64,000 bases of DNA from Promethearchaeota archaeon (GCA_048940925.1 JBHLOC010000025.1:1-64000); one strand, 5' to 3'; positions 3,462 to 44,093 are shown, counted from the stretch's first letter. Numbers and translations are program-made. The notes: generated by a model not told the origin, from the letters alone.

Positions 3462-4832
3462 ATGACCACTAATATAGTAGTTATCGGTATGGGATATGTA
3501 GGCATACCAATGGCAGCATTATTAGCAAATGTTGATAATTTTTATGTTACTGGGATTCAACGAAGGTCAAAAAGATCTGGGTGGAAGATAGATTGGCTCA
3601 ATAGTGGAAAGAATCCTTTTGAGGGAGAAGAGCCAGGCTTAGATGAATTAATAGCTAATGTTGTAAAGAATGGAAAATTTAAAGTTACAGATAAATATGA
3701 TGATGTAGATAATGCAGATTTTATTCTTGTTGATGTACAAACTCCAGTTGATTTAGATTCTAAAGTTCCCAGATATGAATCTTTGAAAGAGGTGTCTAAA
3801 GAAATATCTAAACATCTCAGAAAAGGAACTACGATTATAATTGAATCCACAGTAGCACCTGGTACAACAAACAATATTGTTCAACCAATATTAGAGGAAG
3901 GAAGTGGATTAAAGAGAGGAAACGATTTTTATCTAGTATTTTCATTCGAACGCCTTATGCCAGGGAAATTACTCGAATATATCACAGATATGGAACGAGT
4001 AATTGGAGGTGGGTGTGAAGAAGCGAATAATAGGGCAAAATTTTTATATGGAAAGGTAGTTAAAAGGGAATTAAGAGTTACTGATACATTAACAGCAGAA
4101 TTAACTAAATGTATTGAAAATGCTTATAGAGATGTTAATATTGCTTTTGCAAATGAAATGGCATTATTATGTGAAGACTTTAATAGAAATATATTTGAGA
4201 TTATTGAATTAATTAACCAGAGAGATGATCGAATGATGCATTATCCTGGTTCAGGTGTAGGAGGTCATTGTTTAACTAAAGATCCACACTTACTCGAATA
4301 TGGTCATCGCACGTATACAGAACATAAATTTAATTCGGATATCTTGCTAAAAGCAAGAGAGCTAAATGATTCTATGCCTCGTCATATAATAGAATTAATG
4401 GAAGATACGTTTAGAGAATCTCGTAAATTAGTAGATAATATTAAAGTTACTCTTTTAGGTGTTTCTTATAAAGCAAATACAGATGATACACGTAATACGC
4501 CCTCAGAAAATATTGTCAAATTCCTCAAAAATAGGTATCATTCGCACAATATAACATTTATAGCACATGATCCTTATGTGAAATCTCGAGATTACAATGC
4601 TACAGAATTAACCCATGATTTTGATAAAGCAGTTTCTGGTGCTGATGTACTTATTTTTGCGACAAACCATAGTGAATATTATAATATTGATCTTGATGAT
4701 TTGAAAAAAAAATTAAGAACCCCTATTATAATTGATGGAAGGAATATCTTTAGGAAAAAAACAGTCGAGGAAAAGGGATTCACATATAGAAAAGTCGGAG
4801 AAGGATCAAATACACCAACAAATATTAGATAA
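3462..4832 (+). CDS. Nucleotide-sugar dehydrogenase (UDP-ManNAc/UDP-GlcNAc dehydrogenase, WecC-like)
   Basis: GMGYVG Rossmann motif, IESTVAPGTT, ENAYRDVNIAFANE, catalytic GVGGHCL, GVSYK..TDDTRNTP. Confidence 0.9.
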   Translation: MTTNIVVIGMGYVGIPMAALLANVDNFYVTGIQRRSKRSGWKIDWLNSGKNPFEGEEPGLDELIANVVKNGKFKVTDKYDDVDNADFILVDVQTPVDLDSKVPRYESLKEVSKEISKHLRKGTTIIIESTVAPGTTNNIVQPILEEGSGLKRGNDFYLVFSFERLMPGKLLEYITDMERVIGGGCEEANNRAKFLYGKVVKRELRVTDTLTAELTKCIENAYRDVNIAFANEMALLCEDFNRNIFEIIELINQRDDRMMHYPGSGVGGHCLTKDPHLLEYGHRTYTEHKFNSDILLKARELNDSMPRHIIELMEDTFRESRKLVDNIKVTLLGVSYKANTDDTRNTPSENIVKFLKNRYHSHNITFIAHDPYVKSRDYNATELTHDFDKAVSGADVLIFATNHSEYYNIDLDDLKKKLRTPIIIDGRNIFRKKTVEEKGFTYRKVGEGSNTPTNIR

Positions 4833-4856
4833 TAAATATATAATTAATCACAGCTC

Positions 4857-5963
4857 TTATATATCTTCAACTCGCAGAAACTGTAAGCCTTCCTCTAATG
4901 TTTTAGCAAAAGGCAACTTAACATTCTTACTGATTAATTGATTTCTAAAATTCTCAAGAATGTTCTCTGCTGCTTCTGTTAATTCATCCATTTTGTTAGA
5001 CATTAATAAAATTTCCATATCCGTTTTAATTACTTCAGGAAGTTTCTTAATATACTCATCTATCGGATAAAGACTATTTCTGTCCCATCTCTTATTTTGA
5101 AGAACCATATAAGACCAAATAAAGAATTCTGTAAGATCTGTTGTGGCATAAATTCCAGCATTTAGATCATTATTTTTAGCAGCAGACTTTATCGTATAAT
5201 ATCCCTCAACTGCAGAACTCCATTCTGCTATAATATTCTTATAGGTTTCTTCAGGTTTATCCATATTATCTGCCAACCAATTTTTATATAGCAGATGAAG
5301 ATCATCTACTAGCTCCTCTGCAATTTTAAGAGCTTTGTTTGGCTTGGCTGTTATCAATTTCTCAAATCGTTGAGTAAAATTATTAGGTTTGATTGAAAAT
5401 TTCTCTATTTCTGCTAGTTGTTTCCCCCAGTTGTTAAGAAAGTATTGGTTGTTTAATCCTGCTAATCTATGACAAACTCCAATAGCTATATCCCAAATAA
5501 GTAATCTGATATTTTCTTCTTTATCATTTTCAATATTTTTTTCAATCAACCAAAGTTTACTGAAGAGATCATCAAAGTTCATTGTTTCTTTTACTACTGT
5601 TATTCCCCCTTGATTGATCTTAGATAAAATATTTTCGAGTTTTTGTCGATGTTCTAAACTTTTCTCCCAAACAACAATACCATTTGCTAGAGATCCAGCA
5701 CTCGTACTCCAACAGCCGAGTTTACCTTTTACAAGCTCTTCAGCATACTCCCATGTCATAGACCATGCTTGAATAGGTCTTTCATTAAACATAAATTCCC
5801 AGACAACTTTCTTTGAATCACAAATTATCATTATATCATAATCGGAGAGTTCCTGACCTAAATTGCGAGCAAAACTACCAAATAAAATAACTAAATCGAT
5901 TTCTGGAACATTTTTTGCTAATAAATAGGCAATTTGTTTAATTTCTTGTAAATTCTCATTCAT
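4857..5963 (-). CDS. Pol-beta-type nucleotidyltransferase domain protein (kanamycin NTase-like)
   Basis: N-terminal LFGSFAR...SDYDIMII motif followed by helical domains. Confidence 0.7.
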   Translation of the reverse strand: MNENLQEIKQIAYLLAKNVPEIDLVILFGSFARNLGQELSDYDIMIICDSKKVVWEFMFNERPIQAWSMTWEYAEELVKGKLGCWSTSAGSLANGIVVWEKSLEHRQKLENILSKINQGGITVVKETMNFDDLFSKLWLIEKNIENDKEENIRLLIWDIAIGVCHRLAGLNNQYFLNNWGKQLAEIEKFSIKPNNFTQRFEKLITAKPNKALKIAEELVDDLHLLYKNWLADNMDKPEETYKNIIAEWSSAVEGYYTIKSAAKNNDLNAGIYATTDLTEFFIWSYMVLQNKRWDRNSLYPIDEYIKKLPEVIKTDMEILLMSNKMDELTEAAENILENFRNQLISKNVKLPFAKTLEEGLQFLRVEDI

Positions 5964-6280
5964 TGCAATCAGTGTGTAAATATTTTACTATATTAAAAAT
6001 GATCAGATTATTTTTTTTAATAATTACCCAAATATTGATAAAACTAGAGAAGGATCAAAAAATTGTTTAAAAAATGGGATTAAATAAAAGTTAATCGTTA
6101 GTTCTTACGGAACGTAAAGTTAAATCCAAACATTTTTGATTTAATTTTTTTAGATAGATTTTGTTAACTTTCCTTAATTTAATATAAAAAGATGAAGCAA
6201 TATTATATAATCTCGAATTCTTGGCTGAATTCATGGGATTAGATCCCAATATTTTTTAAATCTAATCTTTGAGATTTGTA

Positions 6281-7627: not shown

Positions 7628-7906
7628 ATGGCAGGAATAAAAGAGTTAAAAAAAGAACTTTCTGAAATGCGAAATAGTATGGAAAAATTAACAGAAGAAT
7701 TACATGAGACCAATCTTGCTATTAGGGAATCATTAAATTCGACATCTCAGGTAATAAAAGAAGCAAGTGAAAAATTTTCAAAAGCATTAGAAGATGTAAT
7801 GAAAACAATGTCAGATTTAACAATTCAGATGAATGTAAGAGATACGATTTTGAAGAATCTTGGGATTGATGGAATGATTCCAGGATTTCTGAAGAAGAAA
7901 AAGTAA
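7628..7906 (+). CDS. Small coiled-coil protein, hypothetical
   Basis: 92 aa heptad-like helical sequence; AGGAG upstream. Confidence 0.7.
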   Translation: MAGIKELKKELSEMRNSMEKLTEELHETNLAIRESLNSTSQVIKEASEKFSKALEDVMKTMSDLTIQMNVRDTILKNLGIDGMIPGFLKKKK

Positions 7907-33341: not shown

Positions 33342-33441
33342 ATTAATAAATAACATGATAAAAATGAATTATATTTTAATATTCAAATCTTCAAAATTAA
33401 GTGTAATAATATAATTTTAAAAAAAATAAAAAAGAATTATT

Positions 33442-34944
33442 ATGACAAGTACTAAAGAAAGTTTTGTAAAAGGGATTATAGAACCAAGTGTAAACGCTGT
33501 AGAAGCAGCTAAAAAGATCCTCGAAGCGGAACAAGTAAAGTTCGTGTTATGTGCTTTTACAGATGTTCGAGGTATTTTTCAGAGTTTTAGCTCTCCTGTT
33601 CATCATTTTTTAAAAGGAGATCAATATTTTGAAACGGGAATTGGTTTTGATGGGTCGAGTATACGAGGATTTAGAGAACTTCACACTAGTGATATGATTT
33701 TCTATCCTGATCCTCAAGCTTTATATATCCTTCCTTGGACGACCGGTTTTCAAAAAACTGCAGTTTTAATAGGAAATATACGTGAACCGTTCGGAAGTAT
33801 AGAAGCTGCTGACTGTGATCCTAGAGGATATGTAGCGCAGCGTGCCATAGATAAAGCTTCAGAATTGGGCTATACATCTTACTTTGGACCTGAAATTGAA
33901 TTTTTTGTTTTTAAGTCTATAGATCCAAGTAAGTTAGATTATGATATTTTTACCAGCCCAAAGGGAGGTGCAGGAGATAGTTGGGGCCCACCAAGAGTGA
34001 ATCCCGTATCTCCCGAAACCGAGATTGGGGGGTATATATTAAGACCTAAAGAAGCATACTTTAGGAATCCTCCTGAGGATACTACTAATGGTTATCGTAA
34101 CGATCTTACAAATACACTCGAAACAATGGGATATACCGTTGAGATGCATCACCATGAGGTCTCTACTAAAGGACAAGTTGAAATAAACTATCGTTATAGT
34201 GACCTATTGGACACTGCGGATAAAGTTCAGATTTACAAGCTTGCTGCACGAAATATTGCTGCTAAATATGGATGGATTGCAACATTTATGCCAAAACCAA
34301 TTTATTTAGATAATGCTAGTGGTATGCATGTTCATAATTCAATGTTCAAGGATGGTGAAAATGCTTTCTGGGATCCAGATGATGATTATGCTGAGATTAG
34401 TCAGGAATGTAGGTATTATATTGGTGGCCTTCTCGAACATGCTGAAGCATTAACGGCGATATGTTGCCCAACAGTCAATTCATATAAACGATTAGTTCCT
34501 GGATTCGAGGCTCCTATTAATATTATGTATAGTCGAAGAAATAGATCAGCATTAATCCGAATTCCAGTGTATTTAAAAGGTGAAAAATACAAAAATAGAA
34601 GACGTATAGAATATAGGGGAGTTGATCCCTCAACAAACTCTTACTTTGCTTTTGCGGCAATATTAACGGCAGGATTAGATGGAATTAAAAAGAAGATTGA
34701 TCCTGGTGACCCTGTAGATAAGGATGTTTATGAAATGTCTGAATCAGAGAAAAAGTCTGCTGGTGTGAAACAATTACCAACAACTCTAAAAGATGCATTG
34801 GACATTATGGAAACTGATTCAATATCAAAAGAAATTCTTGGATCTCATCTCTATGATGCCTTCGTAGAATACAAAACAAATGAATGGAATCAGTTTTGTC
34901 TTTATGTAACACCTTGGGAAATTATGAAATATTTAGACTACTAA
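33442..34944 (+). CDS. glnA: Glutamine synthetase type I
   Basis: FDGSSIRGF, GPEIEFF, HHEV..GQVEI, TFMPKP...SGMHVH, NSYKRLVPGFEAP, NRSALIRIP, IEYRGVD. Confidence 0.95.
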   Translation: MTSTKESFVKGIIEPSVNAVEAAKKILEAEQVKFVLCAFTDVRGIFQSFSSPVHHFLKGDQYFETGIGFDGSSIRGFRELHTSDMIFYPDPQALYILPWTTGFQKTAVLIGNIREPFGSIEAADCDPRGYVAQRAIDKASELGYTSYFGPEIEFFVFKSIDPSKLDYDIFTSPKGGAGDSWGPPRVNPVSPETEIGGYILRPKEAYFRNPPEDTTNGYRNDLTNTLETMGYTVEMHHHEVSTKGQVEINYRYSDLLDTADKVQIYKLAARNIAAKYGWIATFMPKPIYLDNASGMHVHNSMFKDGENAFWDPDDDYAEISQECRYYIGGLLEHAEALTAICCPTVNSYKRLVPGFEAPINIMYSRRNRSALIRIPVYLKGEKYKNRRRIEYRGVDPSTNSYFAFAAILTAGLDGIKKKIDPGDPVDKDVYEMSESEKKSAGVKQLPTTLKDALDIMETDSISKEILGSHLYDAFVEYKTNEWNQFCLYVTPWEIMKYLDY

Positions 34945-35209
34945 TTAAATTTTACTTATTTTTTGATAATTCAAATCTCCAAACCATAAAAATGAAAAAG
35001 AGATATAATATTAGTTGCGAAAGGCATTTAGACGAGAAAAATTTTTTAATTGAATACTATTGTTGTGAATACTCTTGAGGCGAGATATTAATAAATAGGT
35101 GATTAATTTATTTTTCAGATCAGAAACACAATTTAGAGTTAATTAGTCTGAAATAATCTAAACTTCAGGAAGGTTGAAAAGTGTGGCAGATAGTAAGAAT
35201 TGTGAAAGA

Positions 35210-35247
35210 AATGTAATTAAACTCGAGAATTCGATGGCAATTACATT
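35210..35247. repeat. Inverted repeat / stem-loop upstream of the RHH gene
   Basis: AATGTAATT (35210-35218) and AATTACATT (35239-35247) enclose TCGA-GAAT-TCGA. Confidence 0.6.
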
Positions 35248-35324
35248 CACCCAAGAATGGTTTAATAAAACTCACTTGAAAGATATTTATATCAAGAATA
35301 TTAGAAGCAAAATTGCGATAGAAA

Positions 35325-35912
35325 ATGAATGAATTAGAAAATAATCACACGATAAATGACAGGATAACTATTGCAATAGATGAGCAAACAAAACAAATAT
35401 TAAATCAGTTAAATAATCACTCGGAGAGTTCTCGATCTGAAACAATAAGAAAAGCAATTAAATTTTATCATAAATTTAAGAAAGTTTTTGATCAAAAAGA
35501 AAAGGGGGTATCTGCTCAGGTAAACACTTACTTAGAATTACTTTCTAATGGAGAACATATTATTTTAGATGTAGATCATTATCTAACATTTTTAAAATTT
35601 ATTGAAAATTCCCCGAATAAAGATCAGTTTGATGATTTCAATAAATCAATTGGTAGGGCTCATGCAGAAGAATTTTCTCATGATCTTAATATAACTACAG
35701 TCCAAAAAGTAGTAGAACGCCTTGAAGCATGCAATTTTTTCAAAATAATTAAAGATTCATCTAACAAATGTACCCTACTTTTAGGATCTGACATTCAAAA
35801 GAACTTTATTAAGACTTTTTTAGAAGAAGTCTTAAAAGGTATGGGTTTTAAAGTAAGTATTAACGAAGGATTTTCTAAATTAAAGATAATTATAGAGGAT
35901 TTTTCAATTTAG
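35325..35912 (+). CDS. CopG/ribbon-helix-helix regulator with C-terminal ligand-binding-like domain
   Basis: RITIAIDEQTKQILNQL...SRSETIRKAI RHH pattern. Confidence 0.8.
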   Translation: MNELENNHTINDRITIAIDEQTKQILNQLNNHSESSRSETIRKAIKFYHKFKKVFDQKEKGVSAQVNTYLELLSNGEHIILDVDHYLTFLKFIENSPNKDQFDDFNKSIGRAHAEEFSHDLNITTVQKVVERLEACNFFKIIKDSSNKCTLLLGSDIQKNFIKTFLEEVLKGMGFKVSINEGFSKLKIIIEDFSI

Positions 35913-36190
35913 AATTCTTCATTCTTTTAAATACAATCTTCAGGATTTTCAAATTGATATATATAATTTTCTCTGCTGCTGTTCTTCGATAAATAACGCT
36001 ATATTTTAACTTTGGTTCGAATGTAATCTCAAGTTGATTATTCTCTTCATTATCTTTCATCCCCGAATTCGATCTATTGTCCAATCTAAGCTGTTATTAT
36101 AAATTACGTCATTTTGATTTTTTCGCTCACTGATTTGAAAACATCCAAAGTATTGTAAGTACCTAAATAAAGAAAAAAATTACTTTTGAA

Positions 36191-36532
36191 CTATAAAATA
36201 TCGTCTCCCTTTTCTCTCGTTCTTATTCTTATTGCGGTTTCGATAGGCATAATAAAGATTTTTCCATCCCCAGGTTTTCCTGTTTGGGCTTTTTCAATAA
36301 TAGTATCTACAATTTCATCAATATTTATTTTCTCACTCACTACAATCTCAAGTTTTAATTTATCAATCCATTCTATGCAATATTTACCAGACCTATCTAC
36401 CAGTTTTATTCCACGCTGGTGTCCATGACCTTTTACTTTATGGATACTCATACCTTTTATGTCTTTTTCAAATAATCCAGATTTAATTGCTTCTAATTTC
36501 TCCGGTCGTATAAAACACTCTATTTTTTTCAT
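36191..36532 (-). CDS. glnK: PII nitrogen regulatory protein
   Basis: MKKIECFIRP, T-loop GHGHQRG...KY, TGKPGDGKIF, IRIRT; directly downstream of amtB. Confidence 0.95.
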   Translation of the reverse strand: MKKIECFIRPEKLEAIKSGLFEKDIKGMSIHKVKGHGHQRGIKLVDRSGKYCIEWIDKLKLEIVVSEKINIDEIVDTIIEKAQTGKPGDGKIFIMPIETAIRIRTREKGDDIL

Positions 36533-36550
36533 CTTATTTTTATACCTCCA

Positions 36551-37750
36551 TTATGCTTTTTCTCCGTGGATTGAAATATCTATACCTACGTATTCTTCTT
36601 CTTCAGATGCTCTCAAACCAATTAGTTTATCGATCACTTTCGCAATTACCCAAGTTATTACAAAAGTATATCCAATTGTCGCTATAATTCCTACAGTTTG
36701 AATCCATACTTGTCCAGGGTTGCCTGATATTAATCCTGTAGCCCCCACACTTGCAAAAATTCCGGTAGCAATCGCGCCCCAAATACCTCCCCATCCATGA
36801 ATAGCCCACGCATCTAAAGATTCATCAATTTTCGATTTTGAACGCCAAGAAAGTATACCATAACAAATTATTGCAACCACAGCCCCGATTATCAATGCGA
36901 CCCACGGTTGAACAAAACCAGCAGCAGGAGTAATTGCGACCAGCCCCGCTAAACCACCCGTTGCTAATCCAAGAGTACTAAATTTTCCCGTTTTATAATA
37001 TTCTATAATCATCCAAACTAAGGCTGCTACACTCGCCGCTAATTGTGTATTAAACATAGCTAATACAGCGGTACTGTCTGCAGCTAAAGCACTCCCCCCA
37101 TTAAACCCAAACCATCCTAACCAAAGTAGTCCCATTCCTAGTAATACATTAGGAATATTTGAAGGTTCTATCGATTCTTCTTGATATCCTTTCCTTGGCC
37201 CAATTACCAGGGCAACTGCTAAGGAGGCAAATCCTACATTTACATGCACAACGGTACCTCCAGCGAAATCCAGAGCTCCTAGAAAACCTAACCACCCACC
37301 ATCTCCCCAAACCCAATGGGCTATAGGAGAATATACTATTATCAGCCAGATTGAGATAAATATCATGAATGCTTTAAAATTAACTCTCTCTGCGAAAGGA
37401 CTTGCTATAATCGCTACAGTAATTATTGCAAACATCAATTGAAACGCCATATATAAAAGATGTGGTATTGTATCAGAATATACTGGATAGGCTTCTGTTC
37501 CTACTCCGAAAAGTGCAAGGAAATTAAAGCCTCCAATAAATCCACCACCCATATCGGGAGCAAAAGCCAAACTATAGCCAATTATGAACCAACCAACTGT
37601 TACTATTAATATTGAGACAAAACACATTGCCATCATATTTATAATATTCTTCTTACGTAGCAAACCCCCATAAAAGAATGCTAACCCCGGAGTCATAATA
37701 AAAACTAACCCAGTACATATCAAGATAAAAGATATATCTCCACTTGACAA
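36551..37750 (-). CDS. amtB: Ammonium transporter
   Basis: MTPGLAFFYGG, DFAGGTVVH, WFGFNGGS, GLVAITP, twin-His retained (AIHG). Confidence 0.97.
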   Translation of the reverse strand: MSSGDISFILICTGLVFIMTPGLAFFYGGLLRKKNIINMMAMCFVSILIVTVGWFIIGYSLAFAPDMGGGFIGGFNFLALFGVGTEAYPVYSDTIPHLLYMAFQLMFAIITVAIIASPFAERVNFKAFMIFISIWLIIVYSPIAHWVWGDGGWLGFLGALDFAGGTVVHVNVGFASLAVALVIGPRKGYQEESIEPSNIPNVLLGMGLLWLGWFGFNGGSALAADSTAVLAMFNTQLAASVAALVWMIIEYYKTGKFSTLGLATGGLAGLVAITPAAGFVQPWVALIIGAVVAIICYGILSWRSKSKIDESLDAWAIHGWGGIWGAIATGIFASVGATGLISGNPGQVWIQTVGIIATIGYTFVITWVIAKVIDKLIGLRASEEEEYVGIDISIHGEKA

Positions 37751-38142
37751 ATTTATCCACTTTAATAATATTTTAATTTTATTAATTATGGTTTCATTTG
37801 ATTTAGATTTTGTATTCTAAAACTCAAATATAATGAAAAACATCGAATATAAAAGGTTAATTGAGAAAAAAAATTATAGATTAAGATCTTTTAGCTAATT
37901 TTATTAACGATCATGTATTGAATAACAATAAGTTCTTTCATTTTATGAAAAAATATGAAATACTCATAAAAGATTGAATAAATAAATAATAATAAAGAAA
38001 AAATATCTAAGTTTTTACAATATCATGAGAAAATTAAATATATGTACCAGGTAAATTTCACTATTAGTTCATAATATAGTTTATATGAAAAAATATAATT
38101 GAGTATAATAGAATATATTGAAAAAAAATAAAATGAAGAGAA

Positions 38143-39495
38143 ATGATTGAAAAAGACGATCCAAAAAGGAAAGAGATTTGTGATAAAGTAATAGAGAAGA
38201 TTAAAGAAGAGGATATAAAATTTATTTATCTTCAATTTACTGATATCCATGGAATTATTAAATCTTTTGAAATAAACTCCAAGAGGATTGAGGATATTTT
38301 TGAAGTAGGTGAGAATTTCGACGGGAGTTCTATAACGGGTTACGGAGCGATTGAAGAGAGTGATAAAGTTGCACTTCCTGATCCTAGCACATTTTATCTT
38401 TTGCCTTGGAGAAAAGAAAATAAGGTTGCAAGGGTAATTTGTGATATCTATAAACCTGATGGAAAACGGTATGAAGGAGACCCTCGCAGAATATTACAAA
38501 GAGCTGTCAATAAAGCAAAAGAACTAGGTTATGATTACTATTGTGCTCCAGAAATGGAGTTCTTCATATTAACCCCAGATACCGAAAAAGCATTTAAGCC
38601 CTCAGATATGAGAGGATATTTCGATTATGATCCATATGATGTTAACGAAATAATAAGGTATAGAATTGCAGAATATTGCGATGCAATGGGTATTTCTGCA
38701 GAGTGTGTACATCATGAAGTTGCATTTGGACAGCATGAGGTAGATTTCAGATATGATGAAGCAGTAAATACAGCAGATAACACAGTTACAATAAAAACGA
38801 TAGTTAAAACTGTCTCGGCGCAACATAATTTATTAGGAACATTTATGCCTAAACCTTTTGATGGGATTAATGGATCAGGCATGCATGTACATCAATCTTT
38901 ATGGAATAATGGGAATAATATCTTTTATGATGAAAATGATAAAGATCATATTTCGATTATCATGAAAAGATGGATTGCAGGTCAATTAAAACACGCTATC
39001 TCGATGTGTGCTGTTTTAAGTAGTTGGCCTAATTCTTATAAGAGATTAGTTCCTGGATTTGAGGCTCCAGTTTATCTTGCTTGGGGTTTTAGGAATAGAT
39101 CTCCTTTAATCAGGGTACCAGATTTTCATAATAAATCCACCGCAGCTAGATGTGAAATTCGTTGTCCAGATCCTGCTGGTAATCCTTATCTTCAATTTGC
39201 TGTTCTTCTCGCTTCAGGATTAGATGGGATTTTATCAGAGGAAATTGACATTCCTGAACCAACCGATAGAAATGTATATCATTTATCTTCAAAAGAAATG
39301 GAAAAAGAAGGTATTATTTCATTACCAGGGAGTCTTAGTGAAGCTTTAAAGTATTTTAGAGATTCAGAATTTATGAAGGAAGTTTTCGGAGAATTAGCAT
39401 TTAAAAACTACTATTATGCCAAATTGGAGGAATTTGATAAATACAGAGTCGTAGTGAGCGAATGGGAGAGAAATAGATATATAACTCATTTGTAG
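38143..39495 (+). CDS. glnA: Glutamine synthetase type I (second, shorter GSI-alpha-like copy)
   Basis: FDGSSITGY, APEMEFF, HHEVAFGQHEV, FMPKP..NGSGMHVH, NRSPLIRVP, CEIRCPD. Confidence 0.95.
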   Translation: MIEKDDPKRKEICDKVIEKIKEEDIKFIYLQFTDIHGIIKSFEINSKRIEDIFEVGENFDGSSITGYGAIEESDKVALPDPSTFYLLPWRKENKVARVICDIYKPDGKRYEGDPRRILQRAVNKAKELGYDYYCAPEMEFFILTPDTEKAFKPSDMRGYFDYDPYDVNEIIRYRIAEYCDAMGISAECVHHEVAFGQHEVDFRYDEAVNTADNTVTIKTIVKTVSAQHNLLGTFMPKPFDGINGSGMHVHQSLWNNGNNIFYDENDKDHISIIMKRWIAGQLKHAISMCAVLSSWPNSYKRLVPGFEAPVYLAWGFRNRSPLIRVPDFHNKSTAARCEIRCPDPAGNPYLQFAVLLASGLDGILSEEIDIPEPTDRNVYHLSSKEMEKEGIISLPGSLSEALKYFRDSEFMKEVFGELAFKNYYYAKLEEFDKYRVVVSEWERNRYITHL

Positions 39496-39721
39496 GTTTC
39501 TTTTTTTCATTGAAATAGTAATTCAGTCAATTTAAAACATAGAAATATTTTATATTTAATTTAAAATCTATTTTTCTTTTAATTATATTATGTTTTGCTG
39601 AATGCAGAACAAAAATATTAGAATTAAGGGTTGTAGTTAACATAAAGCATTTCAATTTATATAAAATAAAGATTTATCAAATTATGTTCATCCAAAATTT
39701 TTCAAAATTAAGGTTTTTTAA

Positions 39722-39880
39722 ATGAAAGAGGTTACTAAAATATTAAAAGGAAATATCAATAAATTGGTTGATCTAATCAATGAATTTTTAAGAAAGAATG
39801 CAGATAAGAATGCCGAATTGGTTTCTGTTGCTAATTTTGGAGATCGCAAATATTTAGCATTCCTTCAATATGATGTATGA
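39722..39880 (+). CDS. 52-aa small protein, not in ORF track
   Basis: MKEVTKILKGNINKLVDLINEFLRKNADKNAELVSVANFGDRKYLAFLQYDV*; beta-alpha-beta-beta-like pattern; AAGGT upstream. Confidence 0.55.
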   Translation: MKEVTKILKGNINKLVDLINEFLRKNADKNAELVSVANFGDRKYLAFLQYDV

Positions 39881-39934
39881 TAAATCCAAGATAAACAATA
39901 AAATTCAGATTATATAATTATCAATCCTCTTTTT

Positions 39935-40201
39935 TTGATTAAATTTTCTAAAGAAATTTCTGATCAGCAATTTCAGATCTTTAATGGGATCTCTTCTAAA
40001 TGCGTACGATTAGAAAAAGAAAACCTTATAAAACAGGCTAAAAAAATTAACTAAGAGAAAGAAAAGTTAGAACTGGAGAAAAGAAAAACAAAATTGAAAG
40101 ACAGAAGGTTTTTGATAATTTTGGGAATTGCATTGCTTGGGATCACTGGTGTTGGCACCACTATCGTCATGAGTATCCACCATTGTAGTAGATATGGATG
40201 A
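39935..40201 (+). pseudogene. Interrupted coiled-coil plus C-terminal TM protein
   Basis: ...LEKENLIKQAKKIN*(TAA 40052)EKEKLELEKRKTKLKDRRFLIILGIALLGITGVGTTIVM... Confidence 0.45.
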
Positions 40202-40268
40202 ACAAGCAATAGTAACCACAAGAGAATAAAAATATTTATAAAATGGATTACAAAGGAGATAGAATTAC

Positions 40269-40337
40269 ATGGATTTTTCACACAAATTAGTGGTAGTAAG
40301 TGAATGGGAAAAAAACAGATATATAACTCATTTGTAA
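40269..40337 (+). other. 22-codon ORF / diverged duplicate of the glnA (38143) 3' end
   Basis: MDFSHKLVVVSEWEKNRYITHL*; 40290-40337 matches 39448-39495 at 41/48 nt; AGGAG at 40254-40258. Confidence 0.75.
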
Positions 40338-40461
40338 TCCTTTTTCTTGACTTTTTTTATATAGCTTTTAAGATTAATTTAAAGTCTTTATACAACTTAT
40401 TTTTATATATATAAAATTTATACAAAAAACAAGATAATAATATATTTTGAGTGTTTAAAAA

Positions 40462-42111
40462 ATGCGAAATTCAAAATTAAAGGTTTTAATTGCTCAAATT
40501 AATCCTATTGTAGGAGATATTAACCATAACGCAAAAAAAATAATTGATATTATAAGAGACAATCAGGATTGTGATATTATAGTTTTTCCTGAAATGGCAC
40601 TTGTTGGCTATCCAATTATGGATCATATTTATGATCCAGTGATCAAAAATAGAAATCTTGATGCTATTAGAAAAATCAAGCAAACCAAAACGCAGGCAAC
40701 AATAATTTTAGGAACTTTTACAGAACCAGAAAATTTAAAGGGAAAAATCCAGCGGTTTTATAATTCTGCTGTTATAATCGAAAATAATGAAATAAAAGCT
40801 TACGTCAATAAACGCTTATTACCAAATTATGATATATTTGATGAGAGAAGATATTTTTCATTTGATGATAAATACGAACCTTTGGAACTCAAGGGATATA
40901 AAGTAGGAATATTAATATGTGAAGATATATGGGATGAGCATTATGATATAAAAGTAGCAAGGAATTTAGTTTCTAATGGTGCTGAAATTTTAATCGTTAT
41001 AAATGCTTCTCCGTATCACATAAATAAGTTTAGGTTAAGAAGTGATTTAGTTAAGGAGAAATCTAACAGTCTTTCAGTCCCTGTCATATATGTAAATATG
41101 GTGGGTGGTCTTGATGAAATAGTATATGATGGTCAAAGTTTTATAACAAATAAGTTTGGTCAGATAATTTTTAAAGCAAAAGCATTTGAAGAAGATATCT
41201 GCTCATTTGAAGTCCCTATGAAAGATAATGAGCTAATTAAAGAAAAAGATTATACAATTGAATGGAGAGATGAAGCGATAAATGCTCTAACATTAAATTT
41301 ATATGATTATTATTATAAAAGTGGAATTTTTGATGGTGTCGTTTTAGGGCTAAGTGGAGGGATTGATTCAGCTTTTACTGCTTATATTTGTGATAAAGCT
41401 CTTGGTTCAGATAAAGTAACAGCTATTATGATGCCCACAAAATTTACTTCAAAAGAAAGTATTAATCTTGCCCGCAACTTATGTGAGAATTTAAACCTTA
41501 AGTATATAATCCATCCTATTGATGAATTATTTGATGTTTATGAGACTAATTTAGAAAAAAATCTAGGAAATTTACCTTTTGATATAGCAGATGAGAATCT
41601 ACAAGCAAGAATTAGAGCAAATGTTTTGATGTATTATTCAAATAAATTCAATTGGTTATTAGTTTCCACTGGTAATAAATCCGAGATTGGAGTAGGTTAT
41701 TGTACTTTATATGGTGATACATGCGGAGGGAAAAATGTTCCTGGAGATCTTTTAAAAGTTCAAATATATGAAATCTGTAATTGGATTAATAAAGAGAAAG
41801 AAATAATTCCTAAAGGGATTATTGAAAGACCTCCAACTGCAGAATTACGAGAAAATCAAAAAGATAGTGATTCATTACCTACTTATGAAATCCTTGATGT
41901 AATATTAGAGGAAATAATTGAGAATGGAATTGGTTCTGAATTTACAAATTTGAAAAGTAAGGGTTATGATATTAATATAATCAATAAGGTAAGAAACCTT
42001 TATTTAAATTCAGAATATAAACGCAGACAATTAGTTCAAACAATTAAAGTGAGTGAAAGTGCTTTTGGAATCGGGAGGAGATATCCTGTATTAAAAAAAA
42101 TAAAATTCTAA
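40462..42111 (+). CDS. nadE: Glutamine-dependent NAD+ synthetase
   Basis: Nitrilase domain (FPE, K.LLPNY, ICED) plus LSGGIDS, ENLQARIR, TGNKSE, PTAEL. Confidence 0.95.
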   Translation: MRNSKLKVLIAQINPIVGDINHNAKKIIDIIRDNQDCDIIVFPEMALVGYPIMDHIYDPVIKNRNLDAIRKIKQTKTQATIILGTFTEPENLKGKIQRFYNSAVIIENNEIKAYVNKRLLPNYDIFDERRYFSFDDKYEPLELKGYKVGILICEDIWDEHYDIKVARNLVSNGAEILIVINASPYHINKFRLRSDLVKEKSNSLSVPVIYVNMVGGLDEIVYDGQSFITNKFGQIIFKAKAFEEDICSFEVPMKDNELIKEKDYTIEWRDEAINALTLNLYDYYYKSGIFDGVVLGLSGGIDSAFTAYICDKALGSDKVTAIMMPTKFTSKESINLARNLCENLNLKYIIHPIDELFDVYETNLEKNLGNLPFDIADENLQARIRANVLMYYSNKFNWLLVSTGNKSEIGVGYCTLYGDTCGGKNVPGDLLKVQIYEICNWINKEKEIIPKGIIERPPTAELRENQKDSDSLPTYEILDVILEEIIENGIGSEFTNLKSKGYDINIINKVRNLYLNSEYKRRQLVQTIKVSESAFGIGRRYPVLKKIKF

Positions 42112-42287
42112 CGAATAAGTAAATAATCATCATAATTACTTTGAAGAAAATGATGTTTTACTTGGTTATATGAGGAAATGGAAGAGAATTGAAGATAATA
42201 TTCATTTTCACAATATTTATATAATATTTTTACACTAGTATATTGAATATTTTTATTAGTTTGATATGATAATCTTAAGGGTGATTT

Positions 42288-44093
42288 TTGATTTCAAGTG
42301 TAAAAGAAAGTTATAGAAACATAAAGGAAAAGTATATGAGTATAAATGAATTTCACAGGAATATAATTTTAACAATTTTTATTGCTATTATCTGTTTATT
42401 TGTTGGATTATATATAATTTTTGTATTTACTCGTCTGTTACCTGTAGATCCTGTGGCTTCTTATTTAGCTGCTAGGGGGATACATAATCCTGCAGAAGGA
42501 GCTTATCAACAAATGAAATGTCAGTTAGGGTTTTGTGATTCTATAACAGTACAATATTTTAAATATATTAGCGATTTTTTTACAGGTAATTGGAGGATAT
42601 CAGTTTCTTTATATTCTGGGACAAAAGTTACTGATATATTTGGAGAAACAATTCCAAAAACATTGGGATTAATTTCATTACCGTTGATAATAGGAGGAGG
42701 ATTCGGATTTTTCCTAGGAAGGATTTCATCAAGAAACAGAGGTACAGGGAAAGATAAAATTATTCAAGTATTTAGCATTTTAGGAATATCACTTCCTATA
42801 TTTTTCCTTTGCGGAATATTTCAATATGCTCTATGTTATGAGTTAAAGATATGTGAACCTACAGGAATTTCAGCGTTACCTATAGAAATCTTAACTTTCA
42901 CCCTAACAGCATTTATTACTTGGCAAGTTCGCTCCTATTTGACTAATAAATCATATGAAAAATCGCTACTTTTAAATACAATTAAAACAGGAATAAGTTT
43001 TAGTTATATCTTTATGTTTTGGTTATTAGTAGAAGTTACTTTTAACATATATGGATTTGGTACAATTTTAATATATGCAATTTCGCAGTATGATTATTTT
43101 CTTATAAGGGGAAGTTTGTTCTTAATAATTATAATGTTTGTTATAGTTACAATAAGTTCTAATTTGATCTTCAGCATCTATATGTCTCGAAGAAGTAAAT
43201 CCTTTGAATATAATACAGAACCGAAATTTGATGATACAACAGACAAAGGAGAGAATAGTATTGAAAGCAATCCTGAAGAGAATATAAAAGAGTTTTTACG
43301 ACGTAGATTGAAATCTCCTTTCTTTATCCTTGGTGCAATTTTAATAATATTTTTTATTTTTATTGCAATATTCCCTCAATTGATGACACAATATTCTTTA
43401 TCAGAGACTTTAAATCCTTCTTCTGATTTATGGAACCCTCCATCTTCAGAACACCCTTTGGGGCAAACAGTATCAGGACTAGATGTATATGCATTAATAA
43501 TTTGGGGTATACATGATTCAATAATAGTAGGTTTTTTAGCCGTTCTTATAGGTTTGATAGGGGGAAGTATATTCGGATTTATTGCTGGAAAATTTAATCG
43601 ATGGGGATATAGGATAATTATGGGGCTCATGATATTTTTCTATATTTTTCCAGGAATAGTTCTTGTTATACTGTTAATAGATTCTAGTCTACTTTTCTAT
43701 GGACCTTTCTATTGGTATGGGTCATTGTTTATTGGGATTTTATTAATTCCTAATTTCACGAGAGTAATTGCTAATGCAATTTCAGGGGAAATTAATATAC
43801 ATAAAATAAGTAAAGCTGTAATTAGTCAAATCCCGTTAAATTTCGCTATATTTATCGTAATTTATACCACAGTAGGGTTTTTAGGATTATACACATTATA
43901 TTCTGTTTTAGAGCTACAAAATCAGCCAATCCAATTAGGAAGTATTGTTAATATGGGAAGTCAAATACTTCCTGATGCGCCATGGGCTAGTTTCTGGCCA
44001 GGACTTACAATTTTTGGTATAGTTCTGAGTTTTCTTCTTTTTCATGTTGGATTACAGGATTACCAATCGAAGAATCGAATTAAAATTGAATAA
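42288..44093 (+). CDS. Fused DppB-DppC peptide ABC permease lacking EAA loops
   Basis: N half LPVDP...GNWRIS; C half PPSSEHPLGQT..GLD, APW..FWPG; no DYVRTARAKG or YVEAARAxG segment. Confidence 0.82.
   Translation: MISSVKESYRNIKEKYMSINEFHRNIILTIFIAIICLFVGLYIIFVFTRLLPVDPVASYLAARGIHNPAEGAYQQMKCQLGFCDSITVQYFKYISDFFTGNWRISVSLYSGTKVTDIFGETIPKTLGLISLPLIIGGGFGFFLGRISSRNRGTGKDKIIQVFSILGISLPIFFLCGIFQYALCYELKICEPTGISALPIEILTFTLTAFITWQVRSYLTNKSYEKSLLLNTIKTGISFSYIFMFWLLVEVTFNIYGFGTILIYAISQYDYFLIRGSLFLIIIMFVIVTISSNLIFSIYMSRRSKSFEYNTEPKFDDTTDKGENSIESNPEENIKEFLRRRLKSPFFILGAILIIFFIFIAIFPQLMTQYSLSETLNPSSDLWNPPSSEHPLGQTVSGLDVYALIIWGIHDSIIVGFLAVLIGLIGGSIFGFIAGKFNRWGYRIIMGLMIFFYIFPGIVLVILLIDSSLLFYGPFYWYGSLFIGILLIPNFTRVIANAISGEINIHKISKAVISQIPLNFAIFIVIYTTVGFLGLYTLYSVLELQNQPIQLGSIVNMGSQILPDAPWASFWPGLTIFGIVLSFLLFHVGLQDYQSKNRIKIE

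Follow-up and report, generated by a model that had tools for sequence, protein, structure and literature searches.

Integrative elements at gene 3' ends are well known, among them those with tRNA-targeting integrases and the casposons located at the 3' end of aEF-2. Small proteins that regulate glutamine synthetase (GS) are also known, such as the cyanobacterial GS inactivating factors IF7 and IF17. The DNA analyzed here is a window of 64,000 nucleotides (nt) from a Promethearchaeota archaeon (GCA_048940925.1, JBHLOC010000025.1:1-64000), in which the last 16 codons of the GS gene glnA are repeated downstream of the gene (copy 2) and complete a 22-codon open reading frame (ORF). Displacement of C-terminal ends has been described for rhs and cdiA genes, with rhs displacement credited to Jackson et al. 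2009 as cited in PMC5361080, and sequential displacement has been described for type VI secretion system (T6SS) effector genes of Vibrio cholerae (Kirchberger et al. 2017, PMC5361080). The route proposed for T6SS and rhs genes is homology-facilitated illegitimate recombination (PMC5361080; PMC3240628), for which PMC5361080 cites de Vries & Wackernagel 2002, Prudhomme et al. 2002 and Meier & Wackernagel 2003. The 23-amino acid (aa) protein sP26 of Methanosarcina mazei binds GSI-alpha (PMC10651883; bioRxiv 10.1101/2020.05.06.080432), and the abstract of PMC10651883 describes the GS dodecamers of M. mazei as unstable and regulated via their oligomer state.

The glnA locus was found to resemble the rhs/cdiA and T6SS genes most closely, and copy 2 is very probably the stranded original 3' end of glnA, displaced by recombined foreign DNA that carried a replacement end. 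As in those systems, the homology anchor lies in the conserved upstream part of the gene, a new 3' end is accompanied by extra DNA, the old 3' end is kept downstream as an orphan, and repeated events give rise to arrays of relics. The locus differs in that glnA encodes a housekeeping enzyme whose new and old ends encode nearly the same peptide, so that a toxin/immunity logic is missing and selection for diverse ends is not evident. A further difference is the host, an Asgard archaeon, in which the route would be a presumed one. Copy 2 adds one more case to a known class of recombination scars; mildly new are the recurrence of such scars at glnA and the slot of gene turnover that follows glnA in Lokiarchaeia.

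Genomes and loci compared

The host is taken to be a Loki-type Asgard archaeon, the DNA of the locus is AT-rich, and the working genome was labelled G000 (4.8 Mb in 90 contigs, estimated contamination 8.4%). The comparison set consisted of 54 genus genomes (G000 and 53 other species) and 80 metagenome contigs. Within the metagenome set, 59 loci with at least 1 kb of sequence past glnA were informative for the downstream ORF. The features of the window from glnA to the decayed relic at ~42140-42211 are on the plus strand.

The glnA gene (38143-39495) is intact and encodes a 450-aa GS of the GSI-alpha type with a complete C-terminus and the Pfam domains Gln-synt_N and Gln-synt_C. Top matches in the PDB were the GS of M. 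mazei, Bacillus and Methanothermococcus. The best solved relatives were the M. mazei structures 8ufj, 8tfb and 8s59 (E ~1e-130), aligned through the last residue. The presence of both domains, the length of ~450 aa and the nearest relatives among archaeal and Gram-positive GS fit the GSI-alpha class.

The repeated glnA end and the empty site

A repeat search located copy 1 at 39447-39494 and copy 2 at 40289-40336, with 42/48 identical positions (88%) and a spacing of 842 nt. The pair scored E = 2e-9 in a search of the whole 4.8-Mb assembly, and the same search found no third copy of the 48-nt tail. The repeat claimed in the preliminary description was therefore confirmed, and a codon-by-codon reading of 39448-39495 against 40290-40337 returned the same seven differences: five synonymous codons, one Arg to Lys change (AGA to AAA) and the stop codon (TAG to TAA). 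The final 20 nt of both repeats are identical, which is also the longest exact match between them. This shared end is identical in the working glnA tail of genome G067 as well and differs by 1-2 nt in G014 and G018. Against the working tails of G067 and of G001, copy 2 matches at 44 of the 48 positions. Upstream of 40289 similarity drops sharply (~9/21 to 14/24 matches, depending on the alignment), which defines a discrete junction at 40288|40289. Taken through its stop codon, the putative stranded resident end spans 40289-40337 and comprises 16 codons including the stop.

The uninterrupted arrangement was present in two relatives. In G018, the nearest relative over every conserved block of the locus, the glnA tail passes straight into sequence orthologous to 40294-42111 (spacer and the downstream gene nadE) at 86.8% identity. 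In metagenome contig L064 (GlnA 93% identical) the tail likewise aligned directly on through the spacer and nadE. From these two sites it follows that copy 2 and its T-rich flank represent the ancestral glnA end plus the old spacer. This spacer, designated IG2 (40338-40461), shares 78% identity with the spacer of G018 across 100 nt and contains T-tracts and an AT-rich, TATA-like stretch. We infer that the T-tracts are the old glnA terminator, and the TATA-like stretch may contain the nadE promoter.

The lineage affinity of the locus changes at the end of the working gene. Positions at which G018 and G014 differ and G000 matches one of them were counted as informative sites. The first 400 nt of glnA contained 53 G018-like and 13 G014-like sites, positions 39211-39410 contained 22 and 12, and the last 85 nt (39411-39495) contained 1 and 11, respectively. 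Over the last 96 nt, identity was 88% to G014 and 80% to G018. The 96-nt spacer directly behind glnA, designated IG1 (39496-39591), matches solely the glnA-nadE spacers of G014 and G065, whereas IG2 matches that of G018. Both outer flanks, nadE and the first 400 nt of glnA are nearest to G018, and the nucleotide identity of the nadE region is 86.8% to G018 against 74.6% to G014. A probable imported segment can thus be delimited at 39411-39591, which holds the last ~85 nt of glnA (including copy 1) and IG1 and is G014/G065-like; the foreign-like tract within glnA starts ~37 nt upstream of the repeat. The simplest reading of these affinities is a G018-like backbone that carries an import between ~39411 and 40288.

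The sequence of events would then be as follows. A DNA segment from other Lokiarchaeial lineages would have recombined into the end of glnA, supplying its own glnA end (the working end from ~39411) and ~794 nt of mixed spacer (39496-40288). The left join would have been made by homology inside glnA and the right join immediately before the resident gene's final 16 codons. A right join at this position would have moved the resident last 16 codons, the old terminator and the spacer 842 nt downstream, ahead of nadE. The preliminary description had offered a displaced 3' end, left by an insertion of ~800 bp or an allele replacement, as one of two readings. This reading is supported by the empty sites of G018 and L064, the foreign working tail with its flank, and the contiguity of copy 2 with the ancestral spacer. 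The mostly synonymous differences between the copies reflect the divergence of two working glnA genes and not selection on the short ORF, since both copies descend from glnA genes that were under purifying selection until the import.

Content of the insert

The ~794-nt insert is a patchwork from several loci and lineages. Behind IG1 lies a small-gene module (39646-39935) with a 52-codon ORF at 39722-39880. The module is 83% identical to sequence at G051:C84 and partly matches G001:C454. In those two genomes it is flanked by an acetyl-CoA hydrolase-like gene on one side and a histone-fold gene on the other, and its distribution is sporadic, covering few of the 54 genus genomes. In G051 (L023, G051:C84) the 52-codon ORF has ATA in place of ATG, the frame is kept and the changes are mostly conservative; in G001 (L019, G001:C454) ~100 nt of the module are deleted. 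The stretch 39612-39718 was considered as a remnant of the start of nadE and rejected, as it belongs to the 52-codon module also found in G051 and G001.

Positions 40131-40245 hold a methionine-aminopeptidase-like 3' relic (…TIVVDMDEQAIVTTRE, stop codon 40227-40229) together with bases downstream of it. By tblastx the relic matches the end of a 305-aa gene at G007:C89, for which the methionine aminopeptidase label was given by eye. In the spacer past the stop codon it is closer to G007 than to the intact copy of G000 (C73:10138-11052). The ATG and the AGGAG motif of the 22-codon ORF lie in the bases 3' of this relic.

The four small ORFs of the insert, the 52-codon ORF included, contained no Pfam domain and hence no recombinase, integrase or casposase domain. 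An Rfam search over 39300-40600 returned a chance-level match only, and the repeat search found no inverted repeat joining the ends of the insert.

Recurrence of glnA-tail relics in relatives

Relics of the glnA tail were searched for in the 54 genus genomes with the degenerate motif …EWE(R/K)xRYI…, using the reversed motif as control. The motif gave 43 matches and the control none. Multiple matches on one contig and strand were obtained in three genomes (G000, G049 and G067). The G049 relic lies 871 nt downstream of glnA and is ~97 nt long with an indel. G067 contained three motif matches, two of which are relics of ~90 nt (tabulated range ~90-100 nt). In G020 the relic stands alone (~90-100 nt), glnA being deleted, and precedes the gene that normally ends the slot. 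This slot, between glnA and a conserved 175-aa gene, holds zero to three genes across the genus.

Metagenome contigs provided further events. In L094 the displaced piece of glnA exceeds 200 codons (>600 nt). L074 (record LAZR01002113.1, which from its name we take to belong to the Lokiarchaeum GC14_75 assembly) carries, within 4753-6115, an insert of ~970 nt flanked by a direct repeat of 166 nt at 99% identity by the repeat finder, traceable to ~190 nt in the alignment. The repeat consists of the glnA tail, the spacer and part of an older relic. Inside the insert are a fragment of a glutamine amidotransferase gene and a ParE toxin gene, with an ORF of 74 aa ahead of the latter. This ORF, which has no Pfam match, is likely the ParE antitoxin. 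Contig L072 is the empty site matching L074. Across all events the relics range from 48 nt (G000) to >600 nt (L094), and the cargo is different each time.

An older, decayed glnA-tail relic (…WKRIEDNIHF…) is present in the window itself at ~42140-42211, between nadE and a DppBC-like permease gene. It aligns with the better-preserved G067 relic r1 (…VVVNEWERTRYIIHF), which lies upstream of the orthologous permease gene. A conserved TATA-like stretch just after the 42140-42211 relic may be a promoter of the permease gene.

Additional rearrangements were observed at this locus. In G067 (L034, G067:C88, ~7740-7775, minus strand) the glnA stop codon is followed at once by 35 nt left from the 3' end of nadE, indicating that nadE was deleted in this genome, and a tandem duplication covers the unit made up of nadE relic, glnA relic and permease gene. 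In G024 (L043, G024:C21) a nadE 3' end lies upstream of glnA and not downstream, which is another rearrangement.

Site-specific integration

The two tails could instead be the attL and attR sites of a site-specific integrative element at the glnA 3' end that has decayed to ~800 bp, a possibility raised by the wording 'att-like' in the preliminary description. As in elements at tRNA genes and in casposons, direct repeats of a gene 3' end flank inserted DNA at a conserved gene; the two repeats agree over their final 20 nt, and tail relics recur at glnA. Against such an element, no integrase, casposase or other Pfam domain was found in the insert or in the three G049 insert ORFs scanned, and terminal inverted repeats were absent from the insert ends. 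The slot contents of different genomes are unrelated (nadE, permease genes, a 249-aa ORF in G001, the ParE toxin gene) and have no element in common. Relic extents from 48 nt to >600 nt mean that there is no fixed att boundary. A 5' boundary shared by the G000 and G049 relics was considered as a hint of site specificity and rejected, as the G049 relic reaches ~-97 with an indel. The foreign-like tract of glnA also begins ~37 nt before the repeat, and the 20 identical nucleotides are equally present in the G067 working tail and all but 1-2 nt of them in G014 and G018. A site-specific element at glnA is unlikely because no recombinase in the ORFs scanned, no fixed boundary and no shared cargo was found, and the 'att-like' wording was not supported.

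The 22-codon open reading frame

In GSI enzymes the C-terminal helix forms the inter-ring contact. The 22-codon ORF (40269-40337, MDFSHKLVVVSEWEKNRYITHL) ends in a copy of this region, its codons 1-7 being inserted DNA and its last 15 codons and stop the glnA relic. As stated in the preliminary description, copy 2 is in frame with ATG 40269, AGGAG precedes the start (40254-40258, 10 nt before the ATG) and a T-tract follows; T-tracts in fact come after both tail copies. An in-frame TAG at 40260-40262, two codons ahead of the ATG, blocks any earlier start. A 10-nt perfect inverted repeat (GGATTACAAA at 40244-40253 and TTTGTAATCC at 40331-40340; 15/17 if extended) brackets the ORF and in RNA would pair AGGAG with the relic end; by a rough estimate it is at chance level for AT-rich DNA.

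The other reading of the preliminary description was a mimic peptide that modulates assembly of the dodecamer. In that case, translation of the ORF would yield an imitation of the C-terminal helix of GS that competes for the inter-ring pocket and modulates dodecamer assembly or activity. The ORF is intact, with ATG, AGGAG at 10 nt and stop codon, and 14 of its last 15 residues match the GS tail. A published precedent is sP26, of 23 aa, which binds an archaeal GSI-alpha (PMC10651883). By description, the 22-codon ORF is similar to it in size, lies beside a GSI-alpha gene and shares the idea of an action on the GS oligomer state.

The comparison with relatives gave no support to such a mimic. 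The ORF was present in 1/54 genus genomes (G000) and 0/59 metagenome loci. Its ATG lies to the left of the junction 40288|40289 and, like the Shine-Dalgarno motif, within the inserted foreign DNA. Conservation of start, Shine-Dalgarno motif and peptide had been proposed as a check, and the first two were missing in all relatives. Four relics were read codon by codon (G049, G020 and two from G067). No canonical start (ATG, GTG, TTG) was found in frame past the upstream stop in G049 and G020, and the two G067 relics had neither start nor stop; the relics of L072 and L074 and the older relic at 42140-42211 contain internal stops. AAA (Lys) occurs in copy 2 only, the other 42/43 motif matches having Arg, so that the sole residue change falls on an Arg invariant in the other 42 genus tails. 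The synonymous bias is accounted for by descent from two working genes, and a chance in-frame start within the 7 codons that separate the relic from the upstream stop is not rare in AT-rich DNA (rough estimate ~0.1-0.3). A functional mimic peptide is on these grounds very unlikely. IF7, IF17 and sP26 are products of dedicated genes, whereas the 22-codon ORF appears in a single genome and seems to have been built across a recombination junction.

It is similarly improbable, to a high degree, that the junction created a newly expressed 22-residue GS-helix peptide which tunes or disturbs GSI-alpha dodecamers in this lineage only. If true, this would be a newborn regulatory micropeptide recruited out of a recombination scar. 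Most likely the ATG and AGGAG that complete the ORF are accidental, and copy 2 is most likely a relic with no function of its own.

Gene-end relics across the genome and local duplication

A census of gene-end copies was performed on G000 using crude ORF calls of at least 150 aa, the 63-nt tail, head and middle of each gene being searched against the genome. Tails gave 19 nearby direct copies outside long ORFs (15 of them downstream), heads 9 (6 upstream) and middles 1 (downstream); rough start-codon calls may undercount the head copies. About half of the tail matches continue into longer paralogue fragments. In G000, stranded gene ends appear to arise generally as a by-product of gene turnover. 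Examples from other genes, in which the last 50-155 nt are copied 0.7-1.5 kb downstream, include C7:5580-5642, C6:11912-11961, C82:78306-78357 and C55:88382-88444.

A local tandem duplication that began within the tail of glnA, with later divergence and with deletions in one copy, was also weighed. Duplications across gene ends leave such tail fragments, the genome-wide excess of tails and heads over middles agrees with them, and the copies of L074 are 99% identical. At the present locus, however, IG1 and IG2 are orthologous to different lineages and not paralogues of one another, and the insert has no nadE 5' sequence, yet has material of other loci and lineages. Because the two flanks belong to different lineages, tandem duplication is extremely unlikely.

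An assembly artefact, with co-occurring strains joined into a chimera in a metagenome-assembled genome, is suggested by the 90 contigs, the 8.4% estimated contamination and the mosaic look of glnA, but is scarcely credible because the copies share at most 20 exact bases and the same architecture recurs in the independent assemblies G049, G067 and L074; a strain chimera at a shared repeat would moreover yield one tail and not two, and the junction sequence is found nowhere else in G000.

Strength of the displacement reading and route of recombination

The comparisons above establish that the site is empty in close relatives, that the lineage changes along the locus, that the insert is a mosaic and that relics recur. 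Several points weigh against displacement of the resident glnA end. No donor with the entire insert was found, so the import would have to be pieced together from its patches. The 37-nt junction string was absent from public metagenome contigs, and the exact GlnA was absent from public records. The junctions 39495|39496 and 40288|40289 are those of a single assembly. The left crossover at ~39411 is approximate, as glnA is mosaic over its full length. Several relics keep the peptide rather well, which could reflect slow decay or weak constraint. A TATA-like TTTATAAA at 40235-40242, ~27 nt upstream of ATG 40269, could also allow incidental transcription of the 22-codon ORF.

The route by which the resident glnA end was displaced could have been homology-facilitated illegitimate recombination or the single-crossover integration of a circular fragment. 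For this locus one homologous and one non-homologous join fit the former, which likewise has a homologous anchor (here in glnA), a non-homologous join (here at 40288|40289) and a net gain of foreign DNA. [quoted passage not shown] For L074 a single crossover with a circular fragment fits at least as well.

Neighbouring genes

The nadE gene (40462-42111) encodes a glutamine-dependent NAD synthetase with the Pfam domains CN_hydrolase and NAD_synthase and belongs to the G018-like backbone. Downstream of it, in the stretch 42112-44083, is the 601-aa DppBC-like permease gene, which G018 and G014 lack at the position between nadE and the 175-aa gene; other genus members have one or two copies. Upstream of glnA, a 4.7-kb block (33431-38105) is missing in G018 and G014, where a Zn-ribbon gene lies directly upstream of glnA. 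The genes of this block encode a second, divergent GS of 500 aa, a ribbon-helix-helix protein, a PII protein and an ammonium transporter.

Implications

The identification of the glnA scar removes the tempting false lead of a GS-mimic micropeptide and on its own matters little. It illustrates that two working alleles are enough to produce a bias towards synonymous changes between the end of a gene and its copy, and that stranded gene ends can confuse small-ORF prediction. As such ends mark successive imports, they can serve to put these events in order and to reveal where lineages have recombined. In Lokiarchaeia the slot that follows glnA is a hot spot of gene turnover, a result of modest value for Asgard genomics.

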